DNA of 64,000 nt from Verrucomicrobiia bacterium (lineage in GTDB: Bacteria > Verrucomicrobiota > Verrucomicrobiia > Palsa-1439). The stretch spans positions 41,420-105,419 of the forward strand of contig DATJBF010000005.1 in assembly GCA_035515475.1 (NCBI GenBank). The letters are read 5' to 3'. The notes beneath the pieces are model-generated. The model was not told the origin of the DNA and searched no databases. It worked only from the letters and a program-made list of their open reading frames with translations. Positions 4,944 through 55,939 of this stretch are shown here, piece after piece. Position 1 is the stretch's first letter. Every line of letters starts with the position of its first letter. The position numbers were made by a program, and so were the translations under genes.

Positions 4944-5110
4944 CGCGTTCGCCGCCAAATCCCGAATGATTTCAAAGTTCCCATTATAACCATGGTCTTT
5001 CCTTATCCCAGCGAAATTCGCCGGAAAGCGCTGGCATATCACCTGCTCAAAGGAATTGGCGTGGCAATAGCCACGAGAAAGCAACAACCTAACAGGGAAC
5101 CAAGGGACTC

Positions 5111-5434: not shown

Positions 5435-5453
5435 GTGAATCACTGCGGTTCCG

Positions 5454-7094: not shown

Positions 7095-7097
7095 TTC

Positions 7098-7844: not shown

Positions 7845-7846
7845 CC

Positions 7847-19784: not shown

Positions 19785-20264
19785 TTACGGGCTGATTTTC
19801 AGGCGTTCGAGATCTTCTTCGCCTTCCATGAGGACGCCCTGTTCCTTGTACGTTTTGAGCATGAAATGCGTGGCGGTGCCGGTGACGCCATCGATGGTGG
19901 CGAGTTTTTCGGCGACAAACTGGGCGACCTCGCGCAGAGAATGGCCCTCGGCAAAGATCAACAGGTCGTACGCCCCGCTCATGAGAAACAGCGAGGTGAC
20001 CTCGTCGAACTTGGCGATGCGCGTGGCGATGCGGTCGAACCCGCCTTCGCGTTCGGGCTGGATCTTCACTTCGATGGCGGCCTTGACGAGGTTGGTGTCG
20101 ATCTTGTCGTCGTTGATGACGGCTTTGTAGCCCAGGATGATCTTGTCGTCTTCGTACTGCTTGATGCGGCGTTCGACTTCGTCAGCGGGCAGGTCCAGCA
20201 TTTTCGCCAGATCGACGGGTGTTCGCAACGCGTGTTCTTCGAGGAGTTTGAGGAGCGGATCCAT
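19785..20264 (-). CDS. Lrp/AsnC-family transcriptional regulator
   Basis: N-terminal HTH (DPLLKLLEEHALRTPVDLAKMLDLPADEVERRIKQY) plus C-terminal RAM domain; probable start MDPLLK at 20264. Confidence 0.85.
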   Translation of the reverse strand: MDPLLKLLEEHALRTPVDLAKMLDLPADEVERRIKQYEDDKIILGYKAVINDDKIDTNLVKAAIEVKIQPEREGGFDRIATRIAKFDEVTSLFLMSGAYDLLIFAEGHSLREVAQFVAEKLATIDGVTGTATHFMLKTYKEQGVLMEGEEDLERLKISP

Positions 20265-20378
20265 GGGGACAGTGTAGGGTTCGCGGTTCAAAGTTCAAGG
20301 TTTATCCCCGGCCACGGGTCCCAAGTTCGCCGTTGCCGTCGGCCGATGGCGTGTGCTAGAGTGCGCGGGTCAGCCGGT

Positions 20379-24332: not shown

Positions 24333-24468
24333 CCGGGCGCTCCCGTGACCGTTCGTGTCCGCCGATGAGAAAATGATGCGCCAACCGCCTCCCTAGGGTC
24401 CACCACCCGGGTGTTGCACCCGGATCAAGCGAGTCGGTTGGCGCGAGGCTGTTTCCATTGTGTTCCAC

Positions 24469-25833
24469 CTAATAGACGAACGTCTCGAGTTCGTACCGGG
24501 CGACGTAGGGACGTCCCCGTTGCGGGTCGAATCGCAGTGCGGCACGGATCGCCTGCTCCTGCTCGCGCATTTCTTGGGGCGTAAGCGGCTCGACGCCCAA
24601 GGCGCGGGACTCCTCATCGTAACGGCTACCGCAGTAAATCACCAGGGGCGAAAAATAAATGTAATCGCCCGTCGACAACGAAAGCTCGTTCAGTACCTCC
24701 GCGGTTTGCTGCCGGTGCGCCGCATCGAACGCCCGGCCACCCGCGCCCAGAAGCACGATCACGCCGACGGCGATGCGTGCTTCCTTGAGCGCGTGAACGC
24801 AGCGCTGCATCCGCTCGGCAGTCGCCGGTTTGCAGAGCCAGCGGAGCAGATCGTTGCTGCCGGTTTCCAGCCCGATGTACACCCGGCGCAGTCCGTGTTC
24901 GCGCAGCCGGTGGAACTCGGGCGCCGTGTGGGACTTGCCCGTGAACACGTCGAGGAACGAACTCACCCCGTCGAAGCGCGTCTTGCTGCCGTACCACCAG
25001 TGCACGGGAACGGAATTCTGTTCGGCCGGGGGGAACTCAAAGTGTTCGTGCAGCACGCCGAAGAACTCGCGGAGCGTGTCTTCGGGCAGCGCCAGCGCGT
25101 TGGCTTGGCCCAGCAGAATCGAGCGTCGGGCCCGCAATCCCTCGCCGTGGAACGCCACGGCGTCACGCACGTGCTGGCGGAATTGCTCGGTCGTCTTGCA
25201 GTCGTAAAACACACCCCGATACAACTCGCAGAAGAGACAGCCGCCATACGCGCAGCCTTCCGTGGCCTGCAGCACGAGCGCGTTGTATTGGTCGGGGGGC
25301 AGAATGGCGACCCGCCCGTACATTTGATTGAACCGCTGGGCATCGGCCCGGGCCGCTTCGACGCCGAACTTCGTGGCGCGCTCCAAGAGCGGCGTGAGCG
25401 TTTCGACGGCCTGATGAACGGACGGTTTCCCAAACTCAATCGCGAGCGCGCCATCGTTCAGCCGTGCCAGAACCTTCACGGCCTGCGACTGGGCTTGGTC
25501 AACAACCGCGTCGGCGCTATCGGCGAGCAGTCCGCGCTCCACGCCGCCGCCCTCGTCTTTCGGGCGTTTCCGCGTGACGAGCACCCGATGAGACAGGCCG
25601 CGACGGTGATACACGTTCGGCTCGGCGACCTTCAACAGCCGGCCATCGAGGTCATAGTGCAACGCGTGTTCGGGCTGGTCGAAGTACAGCGACAATTCCG
25701 CAGGCGAGAGCGCCACGTAAACATGTCCGCCACCCGACAACCGCACTTGGATTCCCGCCGTCAGTCCGGGCACCTCGCCGAGCGTCCGGTTGCGCTGGTA
25801 GCGCAGAACCGATTGTGCGGCGGTCGCCGTCAC
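24469..25833 (-). CDS. radical-SAM-like protein with non-canonical CX4CX2C motif and about 230-aa N-terminal domain of unknown function
   Basis: CAYGGCLFC cluster motif followed by aromatic residue, then GLETGSNDLL and C-terminal half-barrel resembling Elp3/B12-type radical SAM. Probable GTG start at 25833 overlapping the stop of the upstream AhbD-like gene (GTGA). Confidence 0.5.
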   Translation of the reverse strand: MTATAAQSVLRYQRNRTLGEVPGLTAGIQVRLSGGGHVYVALSPAELSLYFDQPEHALHYDLDGRLLKVAEPNVYHRRGLSHRVLVTRKRPKDEGGGVERGLLADSADAVVDQAQSQAVKVLARLNDGALAIEFGKPSVHQAVETLTPLLERATKFGVEAARADAQRFNQMYGRVAILPPDQYNALVLQATEGCAYGGCLFCELYRGVFYDCKTTEQFRQHVRDAVAFHGEGLRARRSILLGQANALALPEDTLREFFGVLHEHFEFPPAEQNSVPVHWWYGSKTRFDGVSSFLDVFTGKSHTAPEFHRLREHGLRRVYIGLETGSNDLLRWLCKPATAERMQRCVHALKEARIAVGVIVLLGAGGRAFDAAHRQQTAEVLNELSLSTGDYIYFSPLVIYCGSRYDEESRALGVEPLTPQEMREQEQAIRAALRFDPQRGRPYVARYELETFVY

Positions 25834-27035
25834 GTCCGTAAGGCCTCGCTGTAGGCCGGCTCGACCGGGGCCGGGCTGATTTCCTCGTCGGTCAGGTAAC
25901 ACGCAGGATCGGACGCCCACGGGTCGCCGTGCACCTGGAGAGCGCGCACGCGGAAGCTGCCCCCGCAGATGTCCTTGAACCGGCACTCGCGGCAGCGGCC
26001 CTTGAGAAGCGGGAGCCGGTTGCGGAGTTGGGCGAGCAGCGGAATCGAATTATCGCTCCACGTCGCGCTGAACGGGCGTTCCTTCACGTTGCCCAGCGTC
26101 GCGCTTTGCCAGAACTGGTCGGGATGAATGTTGCCCTGGGTGTCGATGTTGGCGATGCCGATGCCCGAGGAGTTGGCGCCCCCCCCGTTCCACTTCATCC
26201 ATTCATGGACCTGCTTCGCGCGGGCCGGGTTGACGGTCTGGAGCTTCAAATAGACGTACGCGTTGTCGGCATGATTGTCGACCGTGAGGATCTCCTTGCG
26301 CATGCCGCGTTCGTGAAACACGCGGGTCCGCGCCAGAATGATCTCCATCGCCCGGCGGATCTCGGTGGGCGTCAGTTCGTCCGCCCGATTTCCGCGGCCC
26401 GTGTACACGAGGTGATAAAAACAGGCGCGCTGGATTCCTTCGGCTTCGATGAAATTGAAAATGTCGTGCAGATCCATGCAGTTGCGGCGGGTGAGCGTGA
26501 GGCGGAGGCCGACTTTCTGTCCGACCAGTTGGCAGGCGCGGATGCCGCGTACCGCGGCGTCGAACGCGCCTTTCTTTCCGCGGAACAGGTCGTTGGTCTC
26601 GCCGATGCCATCGAGGGAGATGCCGACGTAGGCAAGTCGGATCGCTTTGAGCTGCGCTGCGATGGCCTCGTCGATGAGCGTGCCGTTGGTCGACAGTGTG
26701 ACGCGCAGGCCCCTGGCCGCCGCGTAAGCCATCAACTCCATCAGGTCGGGCCGCGTCAGCGGTTCCCCACCCGAGAACAGGACGGCGGGGATGCCGAATC
26801 CGGCCAGATCATCGAGCACGGCTTTGGCGTGGGCGTTGGTCAGTTCGCCGGGATACTTCTGGGCGTAGCTGTCCGAGTAACAGTGCACACACCGGAGGTT
26901 GCAGGTGCGGGTAACGTTCCAGACGACGATGGGTTTACGTTCAGCGGCGGTCTTGGGGGCGTCGGGACCGTGGCCATAACGGAGGTGATCCGCCGGTTGT
27001 TCTGCTCCACAATAGAGCTTGGTGATATTGACCAT
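25830..27035 (-). CDS. radical SAM/SPASM enzyme, AhbD/NirJ-like (putative heme synthase of the siroheme-dependent pathway)
   Basis: KPIVVWNVTRTCNLRCVHCY canonical CX3CX2C, GGEPL, and C-terminal SPASM cysteines (CRECRFKDICGG...DPACY). Fused AhbA/B and hemA are present elsewhere in the window. Confidence 0.75.
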   Translation of the reverse strand: MVNITKLYCGAEQPADHLRYGHGPDAPKTAAERKPIVVWNVTRTCNLRCVHCYSDSYAQKYPGELTNAHAKAVLDDLAGFGIPAVLFSGGEPLTRPDLMELMAYAAARGLRVTLSTNGTLIDEAIAAQLKAIRLAYVGISLDGIGETNDLFRGKKGAFDAAVRGIRACQLVGQKVGLRLTLTRRNCMDLHDIFNFIEAEGIQRACFYHLVYTGRGNRADELTPTEIRRAMEIILARTRVFHERGMRKEILTVDNHADNAYVYLKLQTVNPARAKQVHEWMKWNGGGANSSGIGIANIDTQGNIHPDQFWQSATLGNVKERPFSATWSDNSIPLLAQLRNRLPLLKGRCRECRFKDICGGSFRVRALQVHGDPWASDPACYLTDEEISPAPVEPAYSEALRT

Positions 27036-27556: not shown

Positions 27557-28264
27557 ATGCCGAAACTGGACACCGAACTGCATGTGAAGATGTTTCGGGC
27601 CGGGAAACGGCGACGAAGCCTCACTTCACGGATCCGGAAAGCGATCAAGGTGTTACTCGGCAAGGACGACGTGTACGGACTCGAATGGGGTGACCCGGAC
27701 GTGTTCCCTCCCTTGCGGCACGTTCGAGATCATTTCGTCATGCCGTATCTCGCGCCTGACAAAACGGTTGTGGAGATAGGTCCTGGTGGCGGGCGGTGGA
27801 CGCGCTATATGCTCTGCGCCAAACAGATTTATGCGGTTGATTACCATCAAGAAATCCTGAACGAACTCAAATCGAACTTCGACGCTGCGAACATCGCCTG
27901 CGTCAAGAACCACGGGGACGATTTTCCGAACATACCAGATGGGTCGGTTGACTTCTTGTTTTCTTTTGGAACGTTCGTGCACCTCGACGTCGATCTCATT
28001 GATCGCTATCTTCGAAACATGAAACCGTTGCTGAAGCCCGGGAGTCAGGTCGTCATTCAGTATTCGGACAAGACCAAGCCTCGGGGCCGGAGCAACGAAG
28101 GGTTTTCGGAGAATGACCCCGATAACATGCGAAAGCTTGTCCTGTCTCACGGCTATTCGATCCACGAAGAAGATTTGGAAACGCTGGCGCACAGTTCGAT
28201 TGTTCGGTTTGGGCCTCCCAAGGTCGGCACGGGCCCGGAGGCGACGGCGAGAGCCGGTAAGTAA
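27557..28264 (+). CDS. class I SAM-dependent methyltransferase
   Basis: Motif I VVEIGPGGGRWTRYM, motif post-I AVDYH, Rossmann-like pattern; 235 aa. Confidence 0.7.
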   Translation: MPKLDTELHVKMFRAGKRRRSLTSRIRKAIKVLLGKDDVYGLEWGDPDVFPPLRHVRDHFVMPYLAPDKTVVEIGPGGGRWTRYMLCAKQIYAVDYHQEILNELKSNFDAANIACVKNHGDDFPNIPDGSVDFLFSFGTFVHLDVDLIDRYLRNMKPLLKPGSQVVIQYSDKTKPRGRSNEGFSENDPDNMRKLVLSHGYSIHEEDLETLAHSSIVRFGPPKVGTGPEATARAGK

Positions 28265-28692: not shown

Positions 28693-29577
28693 CTACTTCT
28701 TAACCCGGATTGACAAGCCCCGACGGGCGCGGAACTCCGATGGCGAGCAGCCAACCTGGCGACGAAAAGCCCGGTTGAAATACGGAATGGAATCGAACCC
28801 GGCCTCGAACGCGACTTCGCTGACCCGCAGATGGCGGTTCAGCAACAGCTTCTTGGCCGCCTCGATGCGCAACTGCGTTCGGTACTCGGTGAAGGTCAAC
28901 CCGGTCTGTCTCTTGAACAGCTTGCAGAAGTGGCAGGGACTGATGTGCAAACGATCGGCCAATTCGCGCACGGTCGTGGCGCGGTCGCCCTGTTCGGCGA
29001 AATAGGCCTCGATCTTCTGCAGCAGCGGCGACCGTTGGCCGGCTTCTTCCAGCAACAGACGCTGGCCGCACTCGGCGAGATACTGCGCGAACATCTCCAA
29101 CAGCGTTTCGACGGCGTGCAATTTCTTGGTGTCCAGCGACGGGCTTGCGTGCCAACTGGCCTGCAGGGCGTTGACCCGAGATTGCAGTCCCCATTTCTTG
29201 AGTTGGCCCGTCAGCCGCCGCAACTGCACGGCGTCCAGCGTCCCGAGGGAGAAAGGCCCGGCCAGCAGATTCCCCACGTGACGGCCCCCGATCACGACCG
29301 GCGTTACCAGCTTGATCAGCCCGGCGGGACATTGGCAATGCGCGGCCCGGCCCGTGCCCGCGGCCTTGCGCTCGGCGGTCAAGAGTCTTTGCTGGCACAA
29401 CTCCCCGCTGCCCGGGCCCATGCAGCCGTCGATACAGAACAGTGACGAGAGCGGCGTGCCGGGTTTTCCGCTGCCGCTGGCCGGCAACAACGTCAACGGC
29501 AGCCCGGTCGCGCAGCTAAACGCGACCTGTTGCCGCCGGACCGCGTCCGACTTCACGAGTTGCTGCCAGATATCCAT
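28693..29577 (-). CDS. AraC-family transcriptional regulator with Cys-rich N-terminal sensor domain
   Basis: C-terminal dual HTH (VRELADRLHISPCHFCKLFKRQTGLTFTEYRTQLRIEAAKKLLLNRHLRVSEVAFEAGFDSIPYFNRAFRRQVGCSPSEFR). N-terminal domain carries C-x3-C and C-x-C pairs (CIDGCMGPGSGELC, HCQCPAGL). Confidence 0.8.
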   Translation of the reverse strand: MDIWQQLVKSDAVRRQQVAFSCATGLPLTLLPASGSGKPGTPLSSLFCIDGCMGPGSGELCQQRLLTAERKAAGTGRAAHCQCPAGLIKLVTPVVIGGRHVGNLLAGPFSLGTLDAVQLRRLTGQLKKWGLQSRVNALQASWHASPSLDTKKLHAVETLLEMFAQYLAECGQRLLLEEAGQRSPLLQKIEAYFAEQGDRATTVRELADRLHISPCHFCKLFKRQTGLTFTEYRTQLRIEAAKKLLLNRHLRVSEVAFEAGFDSIPYFNRAFRRQVGCSPSEFRARRGLSIRVKK

Positions 29578-30813
29578 TCAGATTCCCCCGAACAGATGGG
29601 CCGGTTCGTGCATCCGTTTCGGCTCGTACACGCAAAACGGCTCTTCGGCCATGTAATCGCCTGCGGCGTGAAATGCCCGAGCCCGACAGCCGAGGCAGAT
29701 TCTCTTGAACTCGCACAGACCACACTTGCCTTCGAGTTGGTCGACGTCGCGCAAGCGGGCGAACACTTCCGAATCGTTCCAAATGTCGCGAAGGTTTTTC
29801 CGCTTCACGTTGCCCGCGCTGACCGGCAGATAGCCGCAGGGGAACACCTCGCCGGTATGCGACACGAAACAGACGGCACTGCCCGCCAAACAACCCTTGG
29901 TCATCGCCGCCATGGCCCCGGAAGAAGAGGGAGGATGGGGTATGGTTGATGGTTGATGGTTGCCGGTGGAGGCAGGCGATCGTTCCGCTCGCCTCTGGAA
30001 CGAGGCTCCGGCGCGCCCGTCGGTCTTCGCCCGTTGCCCGTCGTTCCTCTCCCTACGTTCTTCCGCGAGGCGCTGCCGCATCACGCGGAAGTAGTGCGGT
30101 GCGCAGGTGGCCTTGAGATGGACCTCACCCAGTTTGGTCTTGTCGTACATCCAATTCAACACGCGCTCGTATTGCTCGGCGGGAAGCATGTTCGATTGCG
30201 CGATTTGCACGCCACACCCGACCGGCACGAGCATGAACAGGTGCAACGCGTCGGCGCCCAGTTCCAATGCCAGCGAATAGAGTTGCTCGATCTGGTGAAC
30301 GTTGTGGTTGGTAATGGTGCAATTGATCTGCATGCTCATCCCGAGCCGACGCAGGTTGCGGAACCCGCGCAACGCGGCGGCGAGCGAGCCGGATTGACGG
30401 CGGAACTCGTCATGCGTCGTTTCGTCGGCGCCGTCGATGCTGATGGCCACGCGGCGGATACCACAGTCCACAATGGCGTGGGCCAGATGCTCGTCGATGA
30501 GCGTGCCGTTGGTAGCAAGCGCCACAGGCAGGCCGGCGTCACGCGCGCAAGCCGCGATCTGAAAGATGTCGGGTCGGAACAGCGGTTCGCCACCAGAAAG
30601 TACGAGGATCGGCTTGGCGAACTCGGCGAGGTGACGAACGAACTGGAACGCCTCGACCGTCGTCAGATCGTTCTTCATCAGGTCCTTGCTGACGTCGAGG
30701 CGCCGACAGTGAATACATTCGAGGTTGCAGCCAGCGGTGGTCTCCCAGAAGAGGAGCCTCAACTCATGATTGTCCAGTCCCGCGCCCATTGCCGCACAAT
30801 GGGGGTTTAGCAC
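29578..30813 (-). CDS. radical SAM/SPASM enzyme, AhbC-like (putative Fe-coproporphyrin III synthase)
   Basis: LLFWETTAGCNLECIHC CX3CX2C motif, GGEPL, and C-terminal SPASM cysteines (CFVSHTGEVFPCGY...CGLCEFKRICLGCRARAF). Low-complexity linker before the SPASM domain. Confidence 0.7.
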   Translation of the reverse strand: MLNPHCAAMGAGLDNHELRLLFWETTAGCNLECIHCRRLDVSKDLMKNDLTTVEAFQFVRHLAEFAKPILVLSGGEPLFRPDIFQIAACARDAGLPVALATNGTLIDEHLAHAIVDCGIRRVAISIDGADETTHDEFRRQSGSLAAALRGFRNLRRLGMSMQINCTITNHNVHQIEQLYSLALELGADALHLFMLVPVGCGVQIAQSNMLPAEQYERVLNWMYDKTKLGEVHLKATCAPHYFRVMRQRLAEERRERNDGQRAKTDGRAGASFQRRAERSPASTGNHQPSTIPHPPSSSGAMAAMTKGCLAGSAVCFVSHTGEVFPCGYLPVSAGNVKRKNLRDIWNDSEVFARLRDVDQLEGKCGLCEFKRICLGCRARAFHAAGDYMAEEPFCVYEPKRMHEPAHLFGGI

Positions 30814-31303: not shown

Positions 31304-33322
31304 CTAGAACCGCACGGTGCAGCTGGCGCTGGCGAGGTGGGCGATGTAGTTGTCGACGCCGCCGCTACTGCGGTCGTCGTAGGCATAGTATCCGTAGCGG
31401 AGGCGGGCGATGATATGATTGGAAATCCGGTGGGTGAGACCGACGAGCAGCCCGTGGCGTTGGTAGTCCAATCCCAACGGGAGACCGGCGGCTGAGTTGT
31501 CGGTGAAATTGTCCGAGCGGGAGTAGGTGTACTCGACGTTCACGTCGGTCTTCTTGTCGAGCGCGTAGCCGGCGGTGCCCATGATGGTGTACACGTTGCC
31601 GACGTAATCAACCACGGCCGGGTTTCCATTGGCGAACGACGAGGTGCGCGTGTCGTCAAGCGAGAAGAGGCCGGTCACGTACAGGCGCGCGATCGGCGTG
31701 ACCGTGGCGCTGACGCTGTAGATATTGGCGTCGAAATTGCCCGAGGTCAGTTCGCCACCCGGCGCCAGCATGGGAACGGAGTCGGTGGTGGTCTTGATGT
31801 CGGTGGCCAGCTTCTGGTAGCGGAACGCCACGTTGAAGTAGCGGCAAGGGCGCAGCGTCAACTTGGCGGTTACCTCGTCCTCGATAAAGTTCTGTCCCGT
31901 AATGAACGCGGGATAGCCCGCGATCGTGTCGAGAGTGTGGTCGTAGTCGTTGTCGTAGATGCTGTGGCGGTACCGGCCGGCGAGGGTGACCCGGGGAAGC
32001 GGCGCGGTGTTGAAGCCGACGGTGTAATCCTGGCGCCAGATGTCGGTATCGGTCTTGCGGGCGAAATCCAGCGCGGCGTCTTGGGTCTCGCGTTCTTCGA
32101 GGTCGATCGACTGTTCGTTCCACCGTCCTTCGGCGTAGAGCGTGGTGAACGGAATCTTGGTGTAGCGCAGCCCGACGGTCTCTTCGAGGCTGCGCTTGTT
32201 GTTGCTGCTATGAATGAGCGCTTCGGGGCTGTTGGTCGCGCCGCCGCCCGCGAGCTGGGTCAGGAACGCGTCGGTGAATCCATGGGTGTCCGTCTTCTCG
32301 GCCTCGGCTCCGGCGGCGATGGTCAAGCCGGCGAACGGGCCGAACATGGTGTTGAAGTTGACGACGTGGGAGTCCACATCGACGGCAATCACACTCGTGA
32401 CCCAATCCCGGTCAAACGGAGCACTGAACGGCTCGGTGTTGATGGACAGGCCGCCGCCACCGTTGAGGCTGGTGAACAAATACCCGAGCGACCAATACAC
32501 CTTGTCGTTTACATGCTGGTCCATGCGGAACGCATTGGAGAACTCGTCGTGATGGTAGTGCTCGGTGACGGTGACGGTCTGGCCGGCGGCGGAGACCAGG
32601 TTGGTGGAGGCATCGTGCCGTTGGTCGACGTTGCGAGGATGTTCGTAACGGAATTGATCGGCCAGATGCAGGCTGTTGATGTCGTGTTCCACGTCGGCCT
32701 TGATGATGTCGACCGTCTCATTGACGTGCTCGTAGGACGGGAAGATGTTACGGGTGGTGATGCCCTGGGTGGTGGCGCCCCATTCCAACAACGATTCTTG
32801 GCCCTGGCGGATCTGTCGCTCCACACCCAAGGTAAGCTTCGGCAGGTTCGGCAGCGTCAGCCCCACCTCGGCGAAGGCGTCGCCGTGGCGGACAAACAGA
32901 TCCTGCGCGGTCCCGAACGCAGGTGGAACCAGACCCCGGAAAAACCCACCGGCGCTGTCGTAATACGACTGGAATTCGGTGAAACCTCCGCGGACGAAAC
33001 CCACGTCGGGGTTCACGATTTCCAGCCGCAACTTGTAGTCTTCGTCGTCGAAGAGTGCCCGGCCTTGGACATTCAACTGCCAATTCTTGTTGAGCTTCTG
33101 ACTATAGGTCGCGTCTTCGATCCCGCCCGACCAGCCGTTCTTGATCCACCAGTCCTGACGGAACTTGTTCGCGTCGCCCTTCACGGTAACGTACTGGCCC
33201 CCGGATGTGACGCTCACTTCGGGAGGCGACGTCGAGTTGGTTTCCGCCGTCGTGGCCGGGGGAGACACGAGCGCGAGCGCGGGAAGGCCGATCATGAACA
33301 TTATCAGGATCGATCGTTTCAT
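31304..33322 (-). CDS. large outer-membrane beta-barrel protein (MtrB/PioB-like porin of a porin-cytochrome conduit)
   Basis: Signal peptide (MKRSILIMFMIGLPALALVS), about 670 aa of alternating amphipathic beta-strand pattern rich in Y/G/T/N, and terminal residue Phe (…CTVRF). Immediately downstream of two multiheme cytochrome genes in the same orientation. Confidence 0.6.
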   Translation of the reverse strand: MKRSILIMFMIGLPALALVSPPATTAETNSTSPPEVSVTSGGQYVTVKGDANKFRQDWWIKNGWSGGIEDATYSQKLNKNWQLNVQGRALFDDEDYKLRLEIVNPDVGFVRGGFTEFQSYYDSAGGFFRGLVPPAFGTAQDLFVRHGDAFAEVGLTLPNLPKLTLGVERQIRQGQESLLEWGATTQGITTRNIFPSYEHVNETVDIIKADVEHDINSLHLADQFRYEHPRNVDQRHDASTNLVSAAGQTVTVTEHYHHDEFSNAFRMDQHVNDKVYWSLGYLFTSLNGGGGLSINTEPFSAPFDRDWVTSVIAVDVDSHVVNFNTMFGPFAGLTIAAGAEAEKTDTHGFTDAFLTQLAGGGATNSPEALIHSSNNKRSLEETVGLRYTKIPFTTLYAEGRWNEQSIDLEERETQDAALDFARKTDTDIWRQDYTVGFNTAPLPRVTLAGRYRHSIYDNDYDHTLDTIAGYPAFITGQNFIEDEVTAKLTLRPCRYFNVAFRYQKLATDIKTTTDSVPMLAPGGELTSGNFDANIYSVSATVTPIARLYVTGLFSLDDTRTSSFANGNPAVVDYVGNVYTIMGTAGYALDKKTDVNVEYTYSRSDNFTDNSAAGLPLGLDYQRHGLLVGLTHRISNHIIARLRYGYYAYDDRSSGGVDNYIAHLASASCTVRF

Positions 33323-33332
33323 GAGCGCATCC

Positions 33333-34199
33333 CTAGTACCGCAAGTGGGAGTTGACATCCGAACCATGCACCGCGGTGTGACAGCCGGCGCTGAAACAGG
33401 TGCCGCGGCTCAGGAACGGCGTGTGATCGAACTGGCCGATGATGGTCATGCCCCCCGAGCCGGGCAGCGCGACCTGGGCGTGGCATTTCAGGCACAGATT
33501 ATTGTCCTGCTCGGTAAGCAATTTGTCGTTGATGGAGCCGTGCACGTTGTGGCAGGTGGTGCAGCCCTCGCGCAGTGCTTCGTGTTCGAACACGTGCGGC
33601 CGGGCCTGCTCGCGGTGGCATCGGGCGCAGGTCTCATTGGCGCGGGTGAGAAACGTGCCTTTGGCCTGCATGATGTTTTCGCCGTGCGGATCGTGGCAAT
33701 CGGTGCAACTCATTCGGCCTTCTTTGACCGGATGATGGTGGGGAAGGCTGAACTCCGCGTTCTTGTCGAGATGGCATTGAAAACACATGTCGGGGCCCTT
33801 GCCGGAGATGATAAATCGATCCTTGGGCGTGCCGCCGCCGGCATCAACGTGCAGGCTGCCCGGCCCGTGGCAGGATTCGCAGCCCTGGCCCTCGACCCGC
33901 TCCCCCTCGCCGGGAATCTGGATGCGGGCATGCGCGGTGAGTTTGAAGTTCTGGACTTCCTTCTCGTGGCAGAGCGCGCATTGGTCCATGCCGACGTACT
34001 TCGCCCCGGGAATCATCGGCGGCGCCACGACAACCCGGTCCACCGTCGCACAAGAGATCAAGAGTCCGACGATGGCGATGCCGCCGATGATGCTTCCCAG
34101 GTACAGCTTCCTGGAAGTAGCCGTGCTCAAGGCCTGTCCTCGTTCAGCGGAGGTCCGCGCTCGGGAAATCGCCGGTAACACCGCCGTAGGGATTGCCAA
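33333..34199 (-). CDS. periplasmic octaheme c-type cytochrome (MtrA/OmaB-like)
   Basis: 7 CxxCH plus one CX4CH (CALCH, CESCH, CFQCH, CTDCH, CARCH, CTTCH, CLKCH, CFSAGCH) in about 260 aa; N-terminal signal/anchor. True start probably slightly downstream of 34199 (the ORF overlaps the upstream stop). Confidence 0.85.
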   Translation of the reverse strand: MAIPTAVLPAISRARTSAERGQALSTATSRKLYLGSIIGGIAIVGLLISCATVDRVVVAPPMIPGAKYVGMDQCALCHEKEVQNFKLTAHARIQIPGEGERVEGQGCESCHGPGSLHVDAGGGTPKDRFIISGKGPDMCFQCHLDKNAEFSLPHHHPVKEGRMSCTDCHDPHGENIMQAKGTFLTRANETCARCHREQARPHVFEHEALREGCTTCHNVHGSINDKLLTEQDNNLCLKCHAQVALPGSGGMTIIGQFDHTPFLSRGTCFSAGCHTAVHGSDVNSHLRY

Positions 34200-36732
34200 C
34201 GGTGGTCGTCCGCCTGTCGAACGTGTTCGTACTGAGCATCGTGTAGGTCCACTGCAGGAGGCGGACAGTGTAAGCGGTATTATGCACGCCGTGGCTCAAC
34301 TCGCGGGCGATCATCTGGTAGTTCCAGACGGCGGCATGCTGAGCGGTCGCCACAACCGTGTTGGTGGAGTACCCACTCCAGAACGGGTAACCGGCGCTAT
34401 GCTTGAGGGAGTTTGTCGCCGTCGAGCTGTCCACGCAATTCGTCATCTTGTCTTCCAGATTGGCCAGCAGGCCATCGACTTCCGTCTGCACGCCGCTGAC
34501 CGTGCCGTCACCGTTGTAGTCGGCCGCGCCGGGGAACCCGCTTCGGACAATCGAGACGTGATCGAAACCTTCGGCTTCCGTAACCGGATCCACGCCGGCG
34601 TGGCACTGGTTGCACGCGGCAATGTCATCTTCCCCCGTCAATCGGTCGCTCATGCTGAACGTGTGATCGCCGACCGTGTTCACGCCGGCGTTATACATGT
34701 GGCAATCGATGCACTTGGCCACACCGGAGTGCGCCGAGTTTTCGAGGGTGACGCTAGCCACCGGCACGAGATTGGTCACTCCGCCGGTGACCACCGTCGC
34801 CACCACATTGGTGACGGTGTCGAACCCGAGGAGGATGTCGGTTGCCGTGCTTTCGTGGGGTAAGCTACTCATGTAATACGGCTTGCCGCTGCTGACTTGG
34901 TACGGATTCGCGCGGGCGTTGTGGCATTGCATGCACAACGCGGAAGCGCCCTGACCAGTCAGGACGGCATTGGTGCCGGTCGAAGTATCAATGCTGTCGA
35001 GCGTGACCGTGTCATACACCCGGACCTGATGAGCATCCGCCGGGAACATCGCGACGTTGTGTGGATCGTGGCAGGCCTGGCAGGTGAGCCGGCCGGCTTC
35101 CAAGCGCGTGAGCGCCTTGCCCTTCAGGTAATCGACGAAGCTCGTCGGCGAATGGCACTTGGCGCACGAAGGGTTGGGGGCTTCGCCGATCGACACGGAA
35201 AGATATTCATCATCGGCGCCGTGCGGTCCCAATCTCCATTGCTTGGGCCGGTTATGGAAATGGCCATCCTGATGGCAAGTGGCGCACACGGCGACGTCCA
35301 GGTTGGCCGACTCGGCACCGGGGTGCTGGCTACCAGGGCCGTGGCAGCTTTCGCACTGGATGTTGGCCTTGTTCTGCAACGCCGCCGGCATCGCCGCATA
35401 GTTGCCGTACTGCAGCACGGTGGGGAACGTCCAGCCGACTTCCTGCTGGACCGCGTAAAAGTTTCCATTAGTTGCCGAAGGTGACTGGTTGTAGCCCACG
35501 GTATGGCAGGCCAGACAGCTGGCATTGTACGAGGAGCCCAGCAGCCCGTCGATGCCCCGCTGGGCCATCGTGGCGTGCAGCGTCTGGCTCCACGGCGTGT
35601 AGTAATCTTCCAATCCGACCAGCGGGCTGGTTCCGTGACACGACGCGCAGGTGGCGACCCCGACATACGTGGCTCCCCGCACGGTCACGAACGAAGAGTT
35701 TGTCTTCCCGCCGCCGCTCACTGTCAGTTGCAGGACATAATCACCTTCCGCGTCCGGTTCCAGGGACGGCGTGCGTGTCTTGGAGCCCACCAACACCGCG
35801 GTCGAACCGGTCGGCTTGGCCGTGATACTCCAACTGTAGGTCGAGGCGTTTGTTCCGTTGGGTGCCCCGGTCAAGTACTGTCGCTCGCCGAGCGGGATGG
35901 ACGGCTGTCCCGGTGAAACACTGGTCGAAATCACCGTGACGGTACCCGTCGCGGCATGCGCCGCATCCGAAACGATGACTTGAAGATGGTAGGTGGTCGC
36001 CGTTACCTGCTCTGAGGTGAAGTGGACGAGGTTCGAGTTCGTCGCCAGATCGTACGAGTTCTCCAGATCGACGGGATCCAGGACGTTGGTGACGCCGCCG
36101 CTCGTGACGTCCAGCAAATTAGTGAAGCTGGTGAGCGGCAGTGTGTTAAATGTCGGCGCATTTGTGGTCGTGGAACTGAACGTCGCGTTTGTCCGCACGT
36201 CGGTGTCGGTCAGGCTCCAGGCGTACGTGAGGGGCGGAGTGAATCCGTTGGTCGAGACCGCGTCCGCGTTGACGGCGACGTTCGTGTTAAATCCGACATC
36301 GTAAAGAGTCGTTTGCGGCGTGGTGGGCGCGGCGGCTGCGCTGATCGTAATCAGAACCGACTTCTGGCCGATGTTCCGGCGACCGAGCTTCGCTTTCACG
36401 CGCAGCACGGCTGTGCCCAGGAAATTGGTCGGGATCGCCACCGAGTCGCTCGTTACCGACATGACACCGGCGACGACTGAGTTTGTGAGGGCGGGGAAGA
36501 GCACCCGTAATTTCTTACCCGTGAGCCGGCCTTTGGTAACGAGAACACCCGGGCTCGTCACGGTCAGATTGAGTTGATACGTGAGCGTGCCGCCGGATGT
36601 CGGGCTCCCGCCGATCTGGAGCGTTCCCAGTTGGGCTGGTGGAGGTTTGGCCGCGCAAACGGGCTGCAAAACCGAAGTCACCAGCGCGCCGACCAACAAG
36701 CTGGTGCCAACAAACAAGGCGTGTCGAGACAT
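34144..36732 (-). CDS. large secreted/cell-surface 9-heme c-type cytochrome with N-terminal beta-rich (Ig-like) repeats
   Basis: Start MSRHALFVGTSLLVGALVTSVLQPVCA (signal) with GGAGGA RBS. About 380 aa of Thr/Ser/Val-rich strand-like repeats, then 9 CxxCH (CASCH, CLACH, CESCH, CATCH, CAKCH, CQACH, CMQCH, CIDCH, CNQCH). Confidence 0.85.
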   Translation of the reverse strand: MSRHALFVGTSLLVGALVTSVLQPVCAAKPPPAQLGTLQIGGSPTSGGTLTYQLNLTVTSPGVLVTKGRLTGKKLRVLFPALTNSVVAGVMSVTSDSVAIPTNFLGTAVLRVKAKLGRRNIGQKSVLITISAAAAPTTPQTTLYDVGFNTNVAVNADAVSTNGFTPPLTYAWSLTDTDVRTNATFSSTTTNAPTFNTLPLTSFTNLLDVTSGGVTNVLDPVDLENSYDLATNSNLVHFTSEQVTATTYHLQVIVSDAAHAATGTVTVISTSVSPGQPSIPLGERQYLTGAPNGTNASTYSWSITAKPTGSTAVLVGSKTRTPSLEPDAEGDYVLQLTVSGGGKTNSSFVTVRGATYVGVATCASCHGTSPLVGLEDYYTPWSQTLHATMAQRGIDGLLGSSYNASCLACHTVGYNQSPSATNGNFYAVQQEVGWTFPTVLQYGNYAAMPAALQNKANIQCESCHGPGSQHPGAESANLDVAVCATCHQDGHFHNRPKQWRLGPHGADDEYLSVSIGEAPNPSCAKCHSPTSFVDYLKGKALTRLEAGRLTCQACHDPHNVAMFPADAHQVRVYDTVTLDSIDTSTGTNAVLTGQGASALCMQCHNARANPYQVSSGKPYYMSSLPHESTATDILLGFDTVTNVVATVVTGGVTNLVPVASVTLENSAHSGVAKCIDCHMYNAGVNTVGDHTFSMSDRLTGEDDIAACNQCHAGVDPVTEAEGFDHVSIVRSGFPGAADYNGDGTVSGVQTEVDGLLANLEDKMTNCVDSSTATNSLKHSAGYPFWSGYSTNTVVATAQHAAVWNYQMIARELSHGVHNTAYTVRLLQWTYTMLSTNTFDRRTTTVGNPYGGVTGDFPSADLR

Positions 36733-36757
36733 GTCTTTTGTCCTCCAGCCAACCATC

Positions 36758-36777
36758 TTGGCAGGGCACGTGCCAGC
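36758..36777 (-). promoter_or_regulatory. candidate sigma-54 (-24/-12) promoter upstream of the 9-heme cytochrome gene
   Basis: Minus-strand sequence CTGGCAC-GTGCC-CTGCC matches TGGCAC-N5-TTGCW except for one position, about 25-45 nt upstream of ATG 36732. The adjacent gene encodes an NtrC-type sigma-54 activator. Confidence 0.35.
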
Positions 36778-37078
36778 CCGCCTCTCGGGCTCCACAAGGA
36801 CCTAGCCATCAAACGCTTAATAAGCCTTTAGCTCTTTCGTCGGTCGAGGTAAAGCTAATTCTAGCGCGACTTCGCTCGGTCGATTGCGTGATTCCGCGCG
36901 GACTCCGCGATGGGTGTCGTCGCGCCGGCGCCATTTCATGCGGGTTTCAGGGAAGGCGAGCGCCCGTGGCACAACCACTGCTGGGCCGAGACGCGCATGT
37001 TATCGGCCAAAGTACTCTGGTCTGTCGTCGCCTTGATTGGGCTCGCGGTTCTGGCTCTTTCGGCCATCGTGATTGTCA

Positions 37079-38476
37079 TCAGCACGTCGCCGCGCTAGGC
37101 TCGCCCGCCGCGTCCAGCAAACCGTACTTCACCAGCCGCCGTCGCAACGCGTCGCGTTCGATGCCCAACAATTCCGCCGCGCGGGTTTGGTTGCCGCCGG
37201 CGCGCTCCATCGCCTGCAGGACGAGTTCGCGTTCGACTTCGGCCAGCGCCACGCCCCGGCCGGGCAGTTCGACCACCCATTTCCCGTTCTTCTTCACGCC
37301 GGCCCGGATTTCAGGAGGGAGATGCTTGGGCTGAATGACGTCGTCGGATTCCAGGATGACCAACCGTTCGACGGCGTTGCGCAACTCGCGGACGTTCCCC
37401 GGCCAATCGTAACACCGCAGCGCGTCCCCGGCCTCGGGGGACAATTGTTTCGGCGACTTCTTGAATTCTTCGGCAAAGTGCTTGAGAAAATGTTCGGCCA
37501 ATTGGGGAATGTCCTCGCGTCGTTCTCGCAACGGCGGGATGTCGACCGAGATCACCTTCAGTCGATAGAGCAAGTCTTGGCGGAACTCACCACGCGCCAC
37601 GGTTTCGGTGAGGTTCTTGTTGGTGCAGGCGATGACGCGGACATCCACCGCGATGTCCTGCGTACCGCCGACCCGGCGAAATTGCCGGGTCTCGAGTACG
37701 CGCAGCAACTTGGCCTGCATCGCCGGTTTGAGGTCGCCGATTTCATCGAGCAGCAACGTGCCGCCGTCGGCCAACTCGAATAACCCTTTCCGGGACGTCT
37801 TCGCGTCGGTGAACGCGCCGCGCTCGTGGCCGAACAATTCGCTTTCGAACAGGTTTTCCGGCACGGCCGAGCAATTGATGTCGAGGAACGGATGTTCGGC
37901 GCGTCGGCCGCCGAAATGGATCGCCCGCGCGGCCAGTTCCTTGCCCGTCCCGTTCTCGCCTTCGATCAGCACCGTGGTCGCGTCGCTTTCGGCAATCTTG
38001 GCGAGCAACTCGCGCGCAGCACGCATCGGGGGGCTTTGGCCGACGAGATTCTCCAGACCAAACTTCCGCGCCTGTTGGCGTTGCAGGCGGGCGACTTCAC
38101 GGCGCAGCTTTAATTCCCCGCGCGCCTTGTCCAGCGCCACGCGGACCTCATCGAAGTCGAACGGCTTGCACAGATAATTGTGGGCGCCGAGCCGGACGCA
38201 TTCCACCGCGCGGGCGATGCCCGTATCGGCGGTCAACATGATGACGGCGATTTCCTTTCCGAGATTCTTGATTTCCTGCAGCACCTGGACGCCGTCCATG
38301 CCGGGCAGGCGCAGATCGAGCAGCACCAGATCGTACCCATCGTTGCGGATCAGGTTGAGTCCTTCCTCGCCGCTGGGGGAGGTCTCCACCTCGTAGCCTT
38401 CGCGCATCAGCTTTTGCTGAAGCGACCAGCGCACCAGCTTCTCATCGTCAATGACCAATACTTTGGCTCTAGCCAT
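37079..38476 (-). CDS. sigma-54-dependent response regulator (NtrC family)
   Basis: Receiver (KVLVIDDEKLVRWSL...LVLLDLRLPGMDG), AAA+ sigma-54 interaction domain (GENGTGKELAARAIH, ESELFGHERGAFT GAFTGA motif) and C-terminal Fis-type HTH. Confidence 0.9.
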   Translation of the reverse strand: MARAKVLVIDDEKLVRWSLQQKLMREGYEVETSPSGEEGLNLIRNDGYDLVLLDLRLPGMDGVQVLQEIKNLGKEIAVIMLTADTGIARAVECVRLGAHNYLCKPFDFDEVRVALDKARGELKLRREVARLQRQQARKFGLENLVGQSPPMRAARELLAKIAESDATTVLIEGENGTGKELAARAIHFGGRRAEHPFLDINCSAVPENLFESELFGHERGAFTDAKTSRKGLFELADGGTLLLDEIGDLKPAMQAKLLRVLETRQFRRVGGTQDIAVDVRVIACTNKNLTETVARGEFRQDLLYRLKVISVDIPPLRERREDIPQLAEHFLKHFAEEFKKSPKQLSPEAGDALRCYDWPGNVRELRNAVERLVILESDDVIQPKHLPPEIRAGVKKNGKWVVELPGRGVALAEVERELVLQAMERAGGNQTRAAELLGIERDALRRRLVKYGLLDAAGEPSAATC

Positions 38477-45248: not shown

Positions 45249-46017
45249 ACCCGATGACCGAGATCCACGCCGCGCGCTGGCCTTTCCAGCCGCGCATGAA
45301 CCGGCAGTGCAAGAACACGGCGTAGATCAACCACGTGATCAGCGACCAGGTTTCCTTCGGGTCCCAACTCCAGTAGGTGCCCCACGCGGAATTCGCCCAC
45401 ACCGCGCCGCTGATGATGCCGACCGTCAGGAACAGGAACCCGAACGAAATCGTCTTGGCCGTGGCCGCGTCGAACGCATCCACGTAGTCAATGGTGGCAC
45501 GGGCTTCCGTGCCTGTGCGTCCACGGACCGGTACGCCCGTGCCACCTCGGATTCGGACCGCCACGAGATATCCGACGCTCGCCGCAAACGCGACCGCGAA
45601 CGCACCGTAGCCGAGGAAGCAGGTGAACACGTGCACCGTCAGCCAGTTCGACCGCAAGGCGGGCATCAACGGCTTGATCGTCGAATCCTGATACGTGCTC
45701 GCATACGCCAGCGTCAGCACCGCCAGCAACGCCGTCGCCGCTCCCAACGCGGGAATCTCGCGGCGGACCCGCAACGCCAGGTAGACGACCACGACCGCCC
45801 ACGCGAACAACACGAGCGATTCGAACATGTTGCTGAACGGCGCCCGGCCCGCGCTGATCCAACGCAGGACGAGATAAACCGTCTGCGCGATCAGCCCGGC
45901 CGACAGCAGCCCGGTCGCCGCGGTCGCAAAGCGGCGTTTACTGGAAAACAGGTTCGCCGCCGCAAGCAGCAGCGCCGTCAGATAGCCAGCCAGGCTGAGA
46001 TTGAATGCGAACGTCAT
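45175..46017 (-). CDS. CcsA/ResC-family cytochrome c assembly protein (HemX-like, downstream of hemA)
   Basis: WWD-type motif WGTYWSWDPKETWSL with conserved His residues in TM helices. Probable start MTFAFNLSLAGYL; the ORF-track start at 46146 is an extension overlapping hemA. Confidence 0.75.
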   Translation of the reverse strand: MTFAFNLSLAGYLTALLLAAANLFSSKRRFATAATGLLSAGLIAQTVYLVLRWISAGRAPFSNMFESLVLFAWAVVVVYLALRVRREIPALGAATALLAVLTLAYASTYQDSTIKPLMPALRSNWLTVHVFTCFLGYGAFAVAFAASVGYLVAVRIRGGTGVPVRGRTGTEARATIDYVDAFDAATAKTISFGFLFLTVGIISGAVWANSAWGTYWSWDPKETWSLITWLIYAVFLHCRFMRGWKGQRAAWISVIGFASVIFTYFGVNYLLSGLHSYATA

Positions 46018-47101
46018 GGTCGTCCTTTCCGTCGCCTGGAGGGCGAGCCTCCCGGCGAGCCGTCGTCCCCTGCGGTTCGGCAGGAGCCTCACCCTCCACG
46101 TGCAGTTTGGGGAGCAACGCGGCGGTGTGTTTGTCGATGATGGCACGGCACAGCGCCAACTCCTGTTCGCGATGGTGCACGTTGTGGCGCACGATCGCTT
46201 CCAAATCGTCGATGTTGTAAAGGTAAACGTTGTCGATCCGCTGCGCGTCGGGATCGATGTCGCGCGGCACGGCGATGTCGATCAGGAACAGCGGACGGTT
46301 GCGCCGCGTCTGCATCAGCTTCTCCACGTCGGCCCGATGCAGAATCGTCTGGGGACAACCCGTCGAGCTGACCACGATGTCCACGTCGGCCATTCGCTGG
46401 AGACAGTCGTCGAACCGGATCGCCTGACCGTTGAATTCCGTCGCCAGGGCTTGCGCGCGGTCGAACGAGCGGTTGGAGACGAGGATCGATGGGGCGCCCT
46501 TCTTGGCGAGGTGGCGCACGCAGGCTTCGCCCATCTTGCCGGCGCCGATGATCATCACCGTGTGCTTCGACAAATCGTGACGGAAAATCTTCTCGGCCAA
46601 CTCCACCGCCACGCTCCCGACCGACGTGGCGCCGCGGCCAATCGCCGTGCGGGTGCGGATTTCCTTCACCGCTTGAAACGCTTTCTGGAACACGCGGTTA
46701 AGCGTCGCGCCGGTCAACCGCGCGGCATGGGCCGATTCATACGCGTGCTTGACCTGGCCCGTGATTTCGGTCTCGCCAAGCACCATCGAGTCGAGCCCGC
46801 TGGCGACCGAGAACAGGTGGGCGATGGCGTCGGCGCCATCGCGCAGATAGAGATGCTCCCGCACGTCGCAAACGTACTTCGAGAGCAACTGAAACAGCGA
46901 TTTCACGTTGCCGTTGACGGCCGGCGCGACGCCGTAGATTTCGACGCGATTGCAGGTCGAGAGCAGCACGACTTCGTCGAGGCCGCCGACGACCCTGAGC
47001 CGGCAACCGTGGCAGCCGAGCTGCGATGGTGCGATGGCGAGTTGCTCGCGCAATTCGACCGGCGCGGTCTTGTAGCTCAGCCCGGCGACAAAGAGGGTCA
47101 T
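45938..47101 (-). CDS. hemA: glutamyl-tRNA reductase
   Basis: MTLFVAGLSYKTAPVELREQL, catalytic LSTCNRVEIYGV, NADPH-binding IIGAGKMGE; GGAGGA RBS. The C-terminus may be shorter than the ORF-track end. Confidence 0.9.
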   Translation of the reverse strand: MTLFVAGLSYKTAPVELREQLAIAPSQLGCHGCRLRVVGGLDEVVLLSTCNRVEIYGVAPAVNGNVKSLFQLLSKYVCDVREHLYLRDGADAIAHLFSVASGLDSMVLGETEITGQVKHAYESAHAARLTGATLNRVFQKAFQAVKEIRTRTAIGRGATSVGSVAVELAEKIFRHDLSKHTVMIIGAGKMGEACVRHLAKKGAPSILVSNRSFDRAQALATEFNGQAIRFDDCLQRMADVDIVVSSTGCPQTILHRADVEKLMQTRRNRPLFLIDIAVPRDIDPDAQRIDNVYLYNIDDLEAIVRHNVHHREQELALCRAIIDKHTAALLPKLHVEGEAPAEPQGTTARREARPPGDGKDDHDVRIQSQPGWLSDGAAACGGEPVFQ

Positions 47102-54901: not shown

Positions 54902-55939
54902 ATGAAATCCGCTGGCGACACGGTAGAAGTCGCATTGCTGAATCAAATCCAGACCGAGGTTCCGGTCGCGGAACATCCGTTTGCCGAACTCGGTCGCAAG
55001 ATCGGCGCGACCGAAGAACAGGTGATTCAGCGGCTGGAATCGCTCAAATCGGCCGGCATCATCCGCCAGATCAGCGCCATTTTCGACACGCGCAGCCTAG
55101 GCTACGCGTCCAGCCTCGTGGGGGCGCGCGTCGACCCGGCGCGCGTGGACGAGGCCGCCGCCGTCATCAGCCAACATCCCGGCGTCAGCCACAATTATCT
55201 CCGGAACCACACGTTCAATCTCTGGTACACCATCGCCGTCTCGCCGTTGAGTAAGCTGGGATTGGAGAAAACCGTCGAGATTCTGCACCGCGAATCCGGC
55301 GCCGAATCGACCCGGCTGTTGCCTACGCTCAAGCTCTACAAGATCGGAGTGAAATTCGACGTCGGCGGAGACGAATCGCGTCCCGACGATCAGGACGCGC
55401 CGCCGTACACCGAAACCAACCGCGCCGCCGACACGGCGCTCACGCCGGCCGAGATCGAGTTTGTTCGCGTCATGCAGCGGGATTTGCTGCTGAAACCGAC
55501 GCCGTTCGTCGATTACGCGCGCGAACTCGGTATCTCGTTTGCCGAATTGCAGGCGATGCACCGGCGGTTCCTCGACACCGGCAAAATGCGGCGGTTCGCC
55601 GCGGTGCTGCACCATCGCCAAGCCGGGTTTAAGGCCAACGCCATGGGCGTCTGGGCCGTGCCCGGTGCTGACGCGGAAGTGGACAGGGTGGGGGAGACGA
55701 TGGCCGGTTTCCGGGTTGTCAGTCATTGTTACAAGCGTCCGATTTATCCCGACTGGCCGTACAACATTTTCACGATGGTCCACGGCAAGACTCGGGAGGC
55801 ATGCGAGCAAACGTTGCGTGCCATCGCCGAAAAGACCGGCATACGAGATCGCTCCGCTCTTTACAGCGCCAAGGAATACAAGAAGGTCCGCGTCCGGTAT
55901 TTCACGACCGAAGAAGAAACGTGGGAACGACAACACTGA
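54902..55939 (+). CDS. fused siroheme decarboxylase AhbA/AhbB (NirD/NirL-like, two tandem Lrp/AsnC-type modules)
   Basis: 345 aa made of two roughly 160-aa AsnC-like halves, each with an HTH and an HNYLRNHTFNLWYT-type motif (second half VVSHCYKRPIYPDWPYNIFTMVHG), as in NirDL/AhbAB fusions. Confidence 0.75.
   Translation: MKSAGDTVEVALLNQIQTEVPVAEHPFAELGRKIGATEEQVIQRLESLKSAGIIRQISAIFDTRSLGYASSLVGARVDPARVDEAAAVISQHPGVSHNYLRNHTFNLWYTIAVSPLSKLGLEKTVEILHRESGAESTRLLPTLKLYKIGVKFDVGGDESRPDDQDAPPYTETNRAADTALTPAEIEFVRVMQRDLLLKPTPFVDYARELGISFAELQAMHRRFLDTGKMRRFAAVLHHRQAGFKANAMGVWAVPGADAEVDRVGETMAGFRVVSHCYKRPIYPDWPYNIFTMVHGKTREACEQTLRAIAEKTGIRDRSALYSAKEYKKVRVRYFTTEEETWERQH

Follow-up and report, generated by a model that had tools for sequence, protein, structure and literature searches.

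A putative radical-SAM enzyme encoded behind an ahbC-like gene in Verrucomicrobiota and its possible link to anaerobic heme and iron metabolism

Most oxygen-independent steps of tetrapyrrole metabolism are carried out by radical S-adenosylmethionine (SAM) enzymes, and, to our knowledge, the mechanism of one of these, AhbC, is still unknown. Here, we analyzed a 64,000-nucleotide (nt) stretch of DNA ("the window") from a Verrucomicrobiia bacterium (assembly GCA_035515475.1, contig DATJBF010000005.1, positions 41,420 to 105,419 of the forward strand), in which a further radical-SAM gene, hereafter X or the target, lies at window positions 24469–25833 on the minus strand, directly behind an ahbC-like gene. 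In X, Verrucomicrobia of peat and wetlands that have large multiheme-cytochrome systems possess a conserved third radical-SAM gene, apparently coupled to ahbC, and it offers a testable lead toward new anaerobic heme or iron chemistry. A review of the radical-SAM enzymes of tetrapyrrole metabolism covers only AhbC, AhbD, NirJ, CgdH, HemW, and BchE (PMC10114771). The radical-SAM superfamily itself is already known; what is new here is the combination of a rare cluster motif, a new accessory domain, and a heme-operon context limited to one phylum. The target and its parts are the following, in window positions and amino acids (aa).

24469..25833, minus strand: target gene X, an open reading frame (ORF) translating to 454 aa, with its stop codon at 24469–24471 included and its GTG start at 25833–25831
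25309..25833, minus strand: N-terminal domain (aa 1–175), a nine-strand antiparallel beta-meander with three helices and one further strand; the motifs FD..GRL and YRRGL..R are conserved
24634..25287, minus strand: radical-SAM (beta/alpha)6 core (~aa 183–400), a partial TIM barrel in the predicted model
25228..25254, minus strand: codons of C194-AYGG-C199-LF-C202, the putative CX4CX2C ligands of a [4Fe-4S] cluster, invariant in relatives
24472..24633, minus strand: C-terminal extension (aa 401–454) with the tail Y447...F452-V-Y454, in which Y447 and F452 are invariant and Y454 is at least 90% conserved

The product of X is 100% identical to HUI05492.1, annotated as a "radical SAM protein" in a Verrucomicrobiae metagenome-assembled genome (MAG), and its length by translation is 454 aa, not the 455 aa given in an earlier reading made from this DNA alone (the sequence-only reading). 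Pfam PF04055 (Radical_SAM) matched aa 191–362 at 34.5 bits, above the gathering cut-off of 29.5, with no other Pfam match to the protein, and distant members of the family matched the same model at 45–57 bits. Within the 454-aa translation from the GTG, EGCAYGGCLFCELY corresponds to C194-x4-C199-x2-C202. None of these three cysteines varied among 24 close homologues or among 47 family members as distant as 29% identity, and the same 47 members also kept P179, P180, Y183, G193, F201, H221, F293, G321, E323, K335, G363, G365, G366, H373, D390, Y447, and F452 without exception. We therefore have very little doubt that X encodes a real radical-SAM enzyme, as the sequence-only reading had proposed from the CX4CX2C motif; that reading would have been given up had the cysteines varied among homologues, and they do not. 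The spacing is non-canonical (the canonical motif is CX3CX2C) and is also documented in OxsB and in a RadicalSAM.org megacluster. Since no cysteine beyond the three cluster ligands was conserved among the 47 members, X would lack an auxiliary cluster; it is predicted to be catalytically competent with a single [4Fe-4S] cluster. By analogy with other members of the superfamily, E323 on strand beta-4 and G363, G365, and G366 on strand beta-5 read as the usual SAM-contacting positions.

An AlphaFold2 model of X, built from the homologue alignment, reached a predicted local distance difference test score of 86.9 and a predicted template modeling score of 0.87. In this model, nine antiparallel strands occupy aa 10–103, three helices and one strand follow at aa 107–172, and six beta/alpha units span aa ~186–400 ahead of the short C-terminal extension. 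The sequence-only reading had described an N-terminal domain of roughly 230 aa with no obvious family; the absence of a family stands, as no relative of the domain was found in Pfam or the PDB, but its size is closer to ~175 aa. The motif GLETGSNDLL, taken in that reading for a C-terminal half-barrel, is strand beta-4 of the same barrel and forms no separate unit.

How does this architecture compare with that of described enzymes? When a profile of the family was compared with PDB sequences, OxsB ranked first (E 7e-7), ahead of MgmA (2e-5) and Elp3 (5e-3). OxsB, a cobalamin-dependent enzyme of oxetanocin A biosynthesis (PDB 5UL2), is thus the best match to X among solved structures; it has the same CX4CX2C motif (PMC9204698) and a G(L/V)E(S/T)G strand, and the alignment begins at the cluster loop and ends near strand beta-4/5. 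MgmA/MJ0865, the methyl-coenzyme M reductase glutamine C-methyltransferase (class B, PDB 9CCB), differs from X in its genomic context. Both OxsB and MgmA carry a cobalamin domain N-terminal to the barrel, whereas X has no such Rossmann-type B12 domain and carries the new domain in that position. X thus combines a class-B-like barrel with a novel domain standing where its relatives carry the cobalamin domain. All NCBIfam matches to X were sub-threshold and came from class B families, namely Pput_1520 and, with E values of 2e-4 to 2e-2, PhpK (19.9 bits, cut-off 600), MJ0865 (14.4 bits, cut-off 360), and HpnJ (13.8 bits, cut-off 578).

The SPASM-type enzymes AhbC, AhbD, and NirJ, which act in siroheme-dependent heme and heme d1 synthesis, share with X the superfamily, the operon, and probably the reductant. 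X differs from them in its N-terminus, in having CX4CX2C instead of CX3CX2C, and in lacking a SPASM domain and the auxiliary-cluster cysteines; the models TIGR04545, TIGR04546, and TIGR04051 did not match X, and no CX2CX5CX20-21C motif was found in it. Elp3, a tRNA modifier that joins radical SAM to an acetyltransferase (PDB 5L7J, 6IA8), resembles X over just ~65 residues around strand beta-4. It has a different N-terminal domain and a C-terminal GNAT domain, whereas X gave no GNAT match and has only ~55 residues after the barrel. The Elp3-type resemblance put forward in the sequence-only reading is consequently generic, with OxsB and MgmA closer by profile.

The large family to which X belongs has no characterized member; clustering at 50% identity gave 3,501 clusters at E ≤ 1e-3, or 526 when the limit was set at E ≤ 1e-30. 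Besides Verrucomicrobiota, it occurs in Chloroflexota (including Thermoflexus and Anaerolinea), Acidobacteriota, and Armatimonadota, and its members appear in databases only as "radical SAM protein", "hypothetical protein", or, at JGI, COG1032 "YgiQ".

The immediate surroundings of the start of X and the two heme-synthesis genes upstream of it are as follows.

25830..25833, minus strand: GTGA, shared by the GTG start of X and the TGA stop of the ahbC-like gene; tcac on the plus strand
25844..25847, minus strand: weak Shine-Dalgarno-like GAGG, 10 nt 5' of the GTG and within the 3' end of the ahbC-like gene, found by reading the sequence
25830..27035, minus strand: upstream partner, an AhbC/NirJ1-like radical-SAM gene (Fe-coproporphyrin III synthase-like) by NCBIfam, with CX2CX5CX21C at the C-terminus of its translation
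29578..30813, minus strand: AhbD-like heme b synthase (radical SAM/SPASM), with TIGR04545 as the best match (437 bits) and Pfam Radical_SAM and SPASM domains

The sequence-only reading had called the upstream coupled partner AhbD-like. In NCBIfam, the product of 25830–27035 scored 527 bits with NirJ1 and 494 with AhbC (12,18-didecarboxysiroheme deacetylase), both below the cut-off of 650, and only 211 with AhbD; it is thus AhbC/NirJ1-like, and homologues 81–84% identical to it are named "Fe-coproporphyrin III synthase" at JGI. The AhbD label fits the gene at 29578–30813 instead, which lies 3.7 kb further upstream. The AhbD-like product contains a low-complexity insertion of ~45 aa, rich in Ser, Pro, and Arg, at aa ~255–305; its score falls below the curated cut-off because the heme b synthase model matches only on either side of this insertion, in two stretches.

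Three starts were considered for X. In the ORF list, a 505-aa frame at 24469–25986 (minus strand) covers X, and the upstream 401-aa gene takes up 25830–27035 (minus strand); the longer frame, starting at GTG 25986, was rejected on account of its 157-nt overlap with the upstream gene and its disagreement with homologue N-termini. A downstream ATG, the first of which is M171, was rejected as it would remove the conserved N-terminal domain. The 364 close homologues of X are nearly all 454–458 aa long (mostly ~456) at 98–100% query coverage. We accept the GTG because the homologue N-termini line up with it and because the starts in ~33 independent Verrucomicrobiota loci lie at or shortly after the upstream stop, 13–14 of these loci having the same −4 overlap (GTGA or ATGA) and the others gaps of 13–47 nt. 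The start proposed in the sequence-only reading, with its GTGA overlap, is therefore retained, and the downstream ATG that would have undone it is not. No sigma-70-like promoter was found on the minus strand between the ahbC-like gene and X. Because of the overlap, the lack of a promoter-like site between the two genes, and the recurrence of this overlap or of short gaps in ~33 loci, X is judged from sequence to be the last cistron of an ahbC–X unit, with its translation predicted to be coupled to that of ahbC. Co-expression of the two genes is highly probable.

A 7-bp GC-rich hairpin, CCGGGTG-ttg-CACCCGG, lies at 24408–24424 between X, which ends at 24469, and the convergent proC, which ends at 24332. 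It may act as a bidirectional terminator or as a stabilizer; no T-run was found at the hairpin.

To see how far this arrangement extends, gene context was compared across 41 non-redundant Verrucomicrobiota loci with X homologues 46–69% identical to the target. An ahbC-like gene lay within 3 kb of the X homologue in 34 of the 41 loci, an ahbD-like gene in 29, and feoB in 28. The usual order is porin-like gene, cytochromes, ahbD, ahbC, X, and feoAB; the window and locus L001 (1–5382) share the order porin–cytochrome, ahbD, ahbC, X, and ~16–20 Verrucomicrobiota loci have cytochrome–cytochrome–porin–ahbD–ahbC. Furthermore, the tight ahbC–X linkage is kept among Verrucomicrobiota homologues of 46–90% identity, and in three loci in which insertions part X from ahbC (L040, L041, and L043), X still adjoins feoB. 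The best 120 matches in a search for AhbC homologues were all from Verrucomicrobiota.

Could X then be part of heme metabolism? Judging by the superfamily, C194, C199, and C202 would bind the [4Fe-4S] cluster and SAM would bind its fourth iron; on receiving an electron from reduced ferredoxin or flavodoxin, the enzyme would cleave SAM to a 5'-deoxyadenosyl radical, and this radical would abstract hydrogen from a substrate, which would lie in the space between the N-terminal beta/helix domain and the open face of the (beta/alpha)6 barrel. It is plausible that, in this Verrucomicrobiota clade, X performs an accessory step of the anaerobic iron/heme economy, acting on a tetrapyrrole of the siroheme route or on heme itself. 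AhbC, AhbD, and, as a rule, the Fe(II) importer FeoAB would be expressed along with X, and these partners would supply the neighboring porin/multiheme-cytochrome system. A substrate from heme or iron metabolism is a tentative proposal, to which we give not quite an even chance. A narrower version of it is unlikely, though specific: X would be a third radical-SAM enzyme of anaerobic heme metabolism, confined to a multiheme-cytochrome-rich clade of Verrucomicrobiota and acting on a siroheme-route intermediate or heme, with the new N-terminal fold holding the substrate where relatives bind cobalamin. Candidate reactions for such an enzyme would be to share the two deacetylations of AhbC, to modify heme for the adjacent cytochromes, or to open the ring without oxygen and so recycle iron.

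Several observations weigh against a heme substrate. In the siroheme route as described, AhbC and AhbD are the only radical-SAM steps (PMC10114771), and this known route needs no third. No heme- or tetrapyrrole-binding fold was detected in the N-terminal domain. Two Verrucomicrobia (L171 and L172), with AhbC proteins 78–79% identical, have no X homologue adjacent to ahbC, so X is not an obligatory partner of AhbC. The heme link, moreover, is confined to one phylum. In a comparison set of 120 further loci, 40 from genomes (Chloroflexota, Acidobacteriota, Armatimonadota, and one labelled Verrucomicrobia, L047) and 80 from metagenomes, with homologues 31–49% identical, ahbC stood beside the X homologue in none; the metagenome scan was run with four closer sequences, and flanks extended up to 10 kb. 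The sole ahbD-like match among these 120 loci was a 31%-identical fragment ~7.5 kb upstream in L131. The co-occurrence with ahbD that the sequence-only reading suggested as a check was seen in the majority of the Verrucomicrobiota loci. Neighbors vary among the 120 loci, the commonest being a four-subunit 2-oxoacid:ferredoxin oxidoreductase, which lies directly downstream in 16 of them and also occurs in L086. Beyond the core clade, the nearest relative is P0121 (48% tblastn identity, with a full-length N-terminal domain); it sits behind the oxidoreductase and not behind ahbC.

The recurrent neighbors of the family nevertheless have a common theme: they deal with iron or with electron transfer at low potential, through heme synthesis, Fe(II) import, Fur with a metal ATPase, or the Fe-S-rich oxidoreductase. 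Such a theme would be expected for any oxygen-sensitive, ferredoxin-dependent enzyme, and consequently falls short of proof that the substrate is heme. The role in heme b, heme c, or heme modification put forward in the sequence-only reading draws its support from the synteny with ahbC and ahbD in one phylum, Verrucomicrobiota. Our literature search returned no paper joining AhbC, AhbD, and Verrucomicrobia and none on a third siroheme-route radical-SAM enzyme or on the family of X, and "AhbE" gave no relevant match. Even if the heme link fails, X would represent a large, multi-phylum family in which a class-B-like barrel and the rare CX4CX2C motif are joined to an N-terminal fold without a structural relative.

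In L171 (3193–7194) and L172 (3298–7176), a DUF1638 gene and a gene for a RACo-like ATP-dependent reductive activase (Raco_middle, RACo_C_ter) precede ahbC, and feoB/feoA lie downstream in one of the two. The DUF1638 protein and the activase may form a dedicated reductant system for AhbC, as an alternative partner to X.

In the comparison set, the subunits of the oxidoreductase (delta, alpha, beta, gamma) are 52–59% identical between lineages and occur in two gene orders, downstream of the X homologue in Chloroflexota and upstream of it in the P0121 lineage (loci in the subsets L050–L082 and L107–L167, and L086 at 4836–7953). A P1B-type ATPase gene lies beside the X homologue in ~8 of the 120 loci, with a Fur-family gene in between in four. 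In L046 (8584–11401, an Anaerolineae MAG) and the unassigned metagenome contigs L103, L110, and L128, a Fur-family regulator comes next after the X homologue on its strand, and after that a heavy-metal ATPase of the P1B type that carries an HMA domain. L086 has a cation diffusion facilitator (CDF) exporter as a neighbor. Neighbors limited to particular lineages are the korDABG-like oxidoreductase, Fur with the P1B-ATPase, ABC-F, DsbA-like, and AIR-synthase-like genes, and Rex.

The strongest alternative is that X is a housekeeping radical-SAM enzyme with a non-heme substrate, be it a small molecule of central metabolism, an RNA, or a protein, and that shared anaerobic or iron regulation and the need for reduced ferredoxin brought it to the ahb/feo genes. 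We regard this as a serious possibility, although probably not the answer. The spread of a large family over several phyla is in line with it, as are the two ahbC loci lacking an adjacent X homologue and the loci outside Verrucomicrobiota, where no ahb genes are adjacent and the neighbors include korDABG-like oxidoreductase, malate dehydrogenase, coenzyme A ligase, ABC-F, and DsbA-like genes. What it explains less well is that the ahbC–X adjacency, often with a 4-nt overlap, survives divergence to 46–55% identity and so outlasts the usual neutral synteny, that X stays beside feoB when it is split from ahbC, and that metal-related neighbors (Fur, P1B-ATPase, CDF) recur in unrelated lineages.

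Alternatively, X might be a chaperone of the HemW kind, binding heme or iron and delivering it, perhaps to cytochrome c maturation, without catalysis. HemW, which retains its cluster yet chiefly binds and delivers heme, is a precedent for a heme chaperone with the radical-SAM fold (PMC10114771), and the neighborhood of X is rich in multiheme cytochromes. Yet X differs from HemN, the oxygen-independent coproporphyrinogen oxidase, and from HemW in that neither a model of the HemN family nor the HemN_C domain matches it, and the match of HemN to X was no stronger than those to a dozen unrelated radical-SAM enzymes. Furthermore, the cluster ligands and the putative SAM-contact residues are strictly conserved across the family, as in a catalyst, and no candidate heme ligand in the N-terminal domain is conserved family-wide; H59 is invariant among Verrucomicrobiota but missing from the family-wide conserved positions. 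We therefore consider a chaperone role improbable.

X might also fill a gap in the siroheme route, for instance as a radical decarboxylase in place of AhbA/AhbB. Two further features of the window bear on this idea.

54902..55939, plus strand: fused AhbA–AhbB siroheme decarboxylase in a single 345-aa gene, with NCBIfam scores of 244 bits for AhbA (cut-off 140) and 241 for AhbB (cut-off 125)
45938..47101, minus strand: HemA glutamyl-tRNA reductase, the first committed tetrapyrrole step, with TIGR01035 at 360 bits (cut-off 210)

With the fused AhbA–AhbB well above both cut-offs, HemA also above its own, and AhbC-like and AhbD-like genes both present with intact cluster motifs, the siroheme-dependent late heme pathway is, by its gene content, predicted to be complete without X. 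Replacement of the siroheme decarboxylase was therefore rejected, and replacement of a step in general, which also has to contend with the Verrucomicrobia carrying ahbC without an adjacent X homologue, is very improbable indeed. Equally hard to credit is a cobalamin-dependent class B methyltransferase or rearrangement enzyme (OxsB-, PhpK-, or MgmA-like) or an Elp3-type tRNA modifier: OxsB and MgmA are the best PDB matches, PhpK, HpnJ, and MJ0865 the NCBIfam ones, the cluster motif is that of OxsB, and JGI applies the "YgiQ" label to homologues, but the curated scores of 14–20 bits fall far below cut-offs of 360–600, and the two identities were rejected for the missing B12 domain and the missing acetyltransferase domain, respectively.

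AhbA and AhbB, the alpha and beta subunits of siroheme decarboxylase, have separate curated models and form one polypeptide in the window. The AsnC-type gene at 19785–20291 is an ordinary Lrp/AsnC regulator and not AhbA/B.

The remaining features lie between the ahbC-like gene and the cytochrome genes or just beyond them.

27557–28264, plus strand: class I SAM methyltransferase, between the regulator below and ahbC, with a weak match to the corrinoid-protein-associated methyltransferase CpaM
28693..29577, minus strand: PocR-sensor/AraC-type regulator (Pfam PocR and HTH_18), its first base immediately following the ahbD-like stop
31304–36795, minus strand: 687-aa beta-barrel-like outer-membrane protein and two multiheme c-type cytochromes (883 and 288 aa), directly upstream of ahbD
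37079–38527: sigma-54 response regulator

The methyltransferase gene has a third-position GC content of 0.66, compared with ~0.8 in its neighbors, and looks like an insertion that split the ahbD–ahbC pair, which is contiguous in most relatives. The pairing of ahbD with the regulator, also present in L003 (344–1297), hints at ligand-responsive expression of ahbD. The genes at 31304–36795 look like those of a porin–cytochrome conduit serving extracellular electron transfer, placed together with genes for heme synthesis and Fe(II) uptake.

Other respiratory genes occur on the minus strand at 41240–45248, 50290–51920, and 53103–54689. They encode an HmcB-like Fe-S protein and a pair of multiheme cytochromes, one of which is a fusion with a formate-dehydrogenase-gamma-like cytochrome b. 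A Rieske protein with a fused cytochrome b6/subunit IV and an NrfH-like cytochrome are encoded there as well. The density of heme proteins in the window is unusually high.

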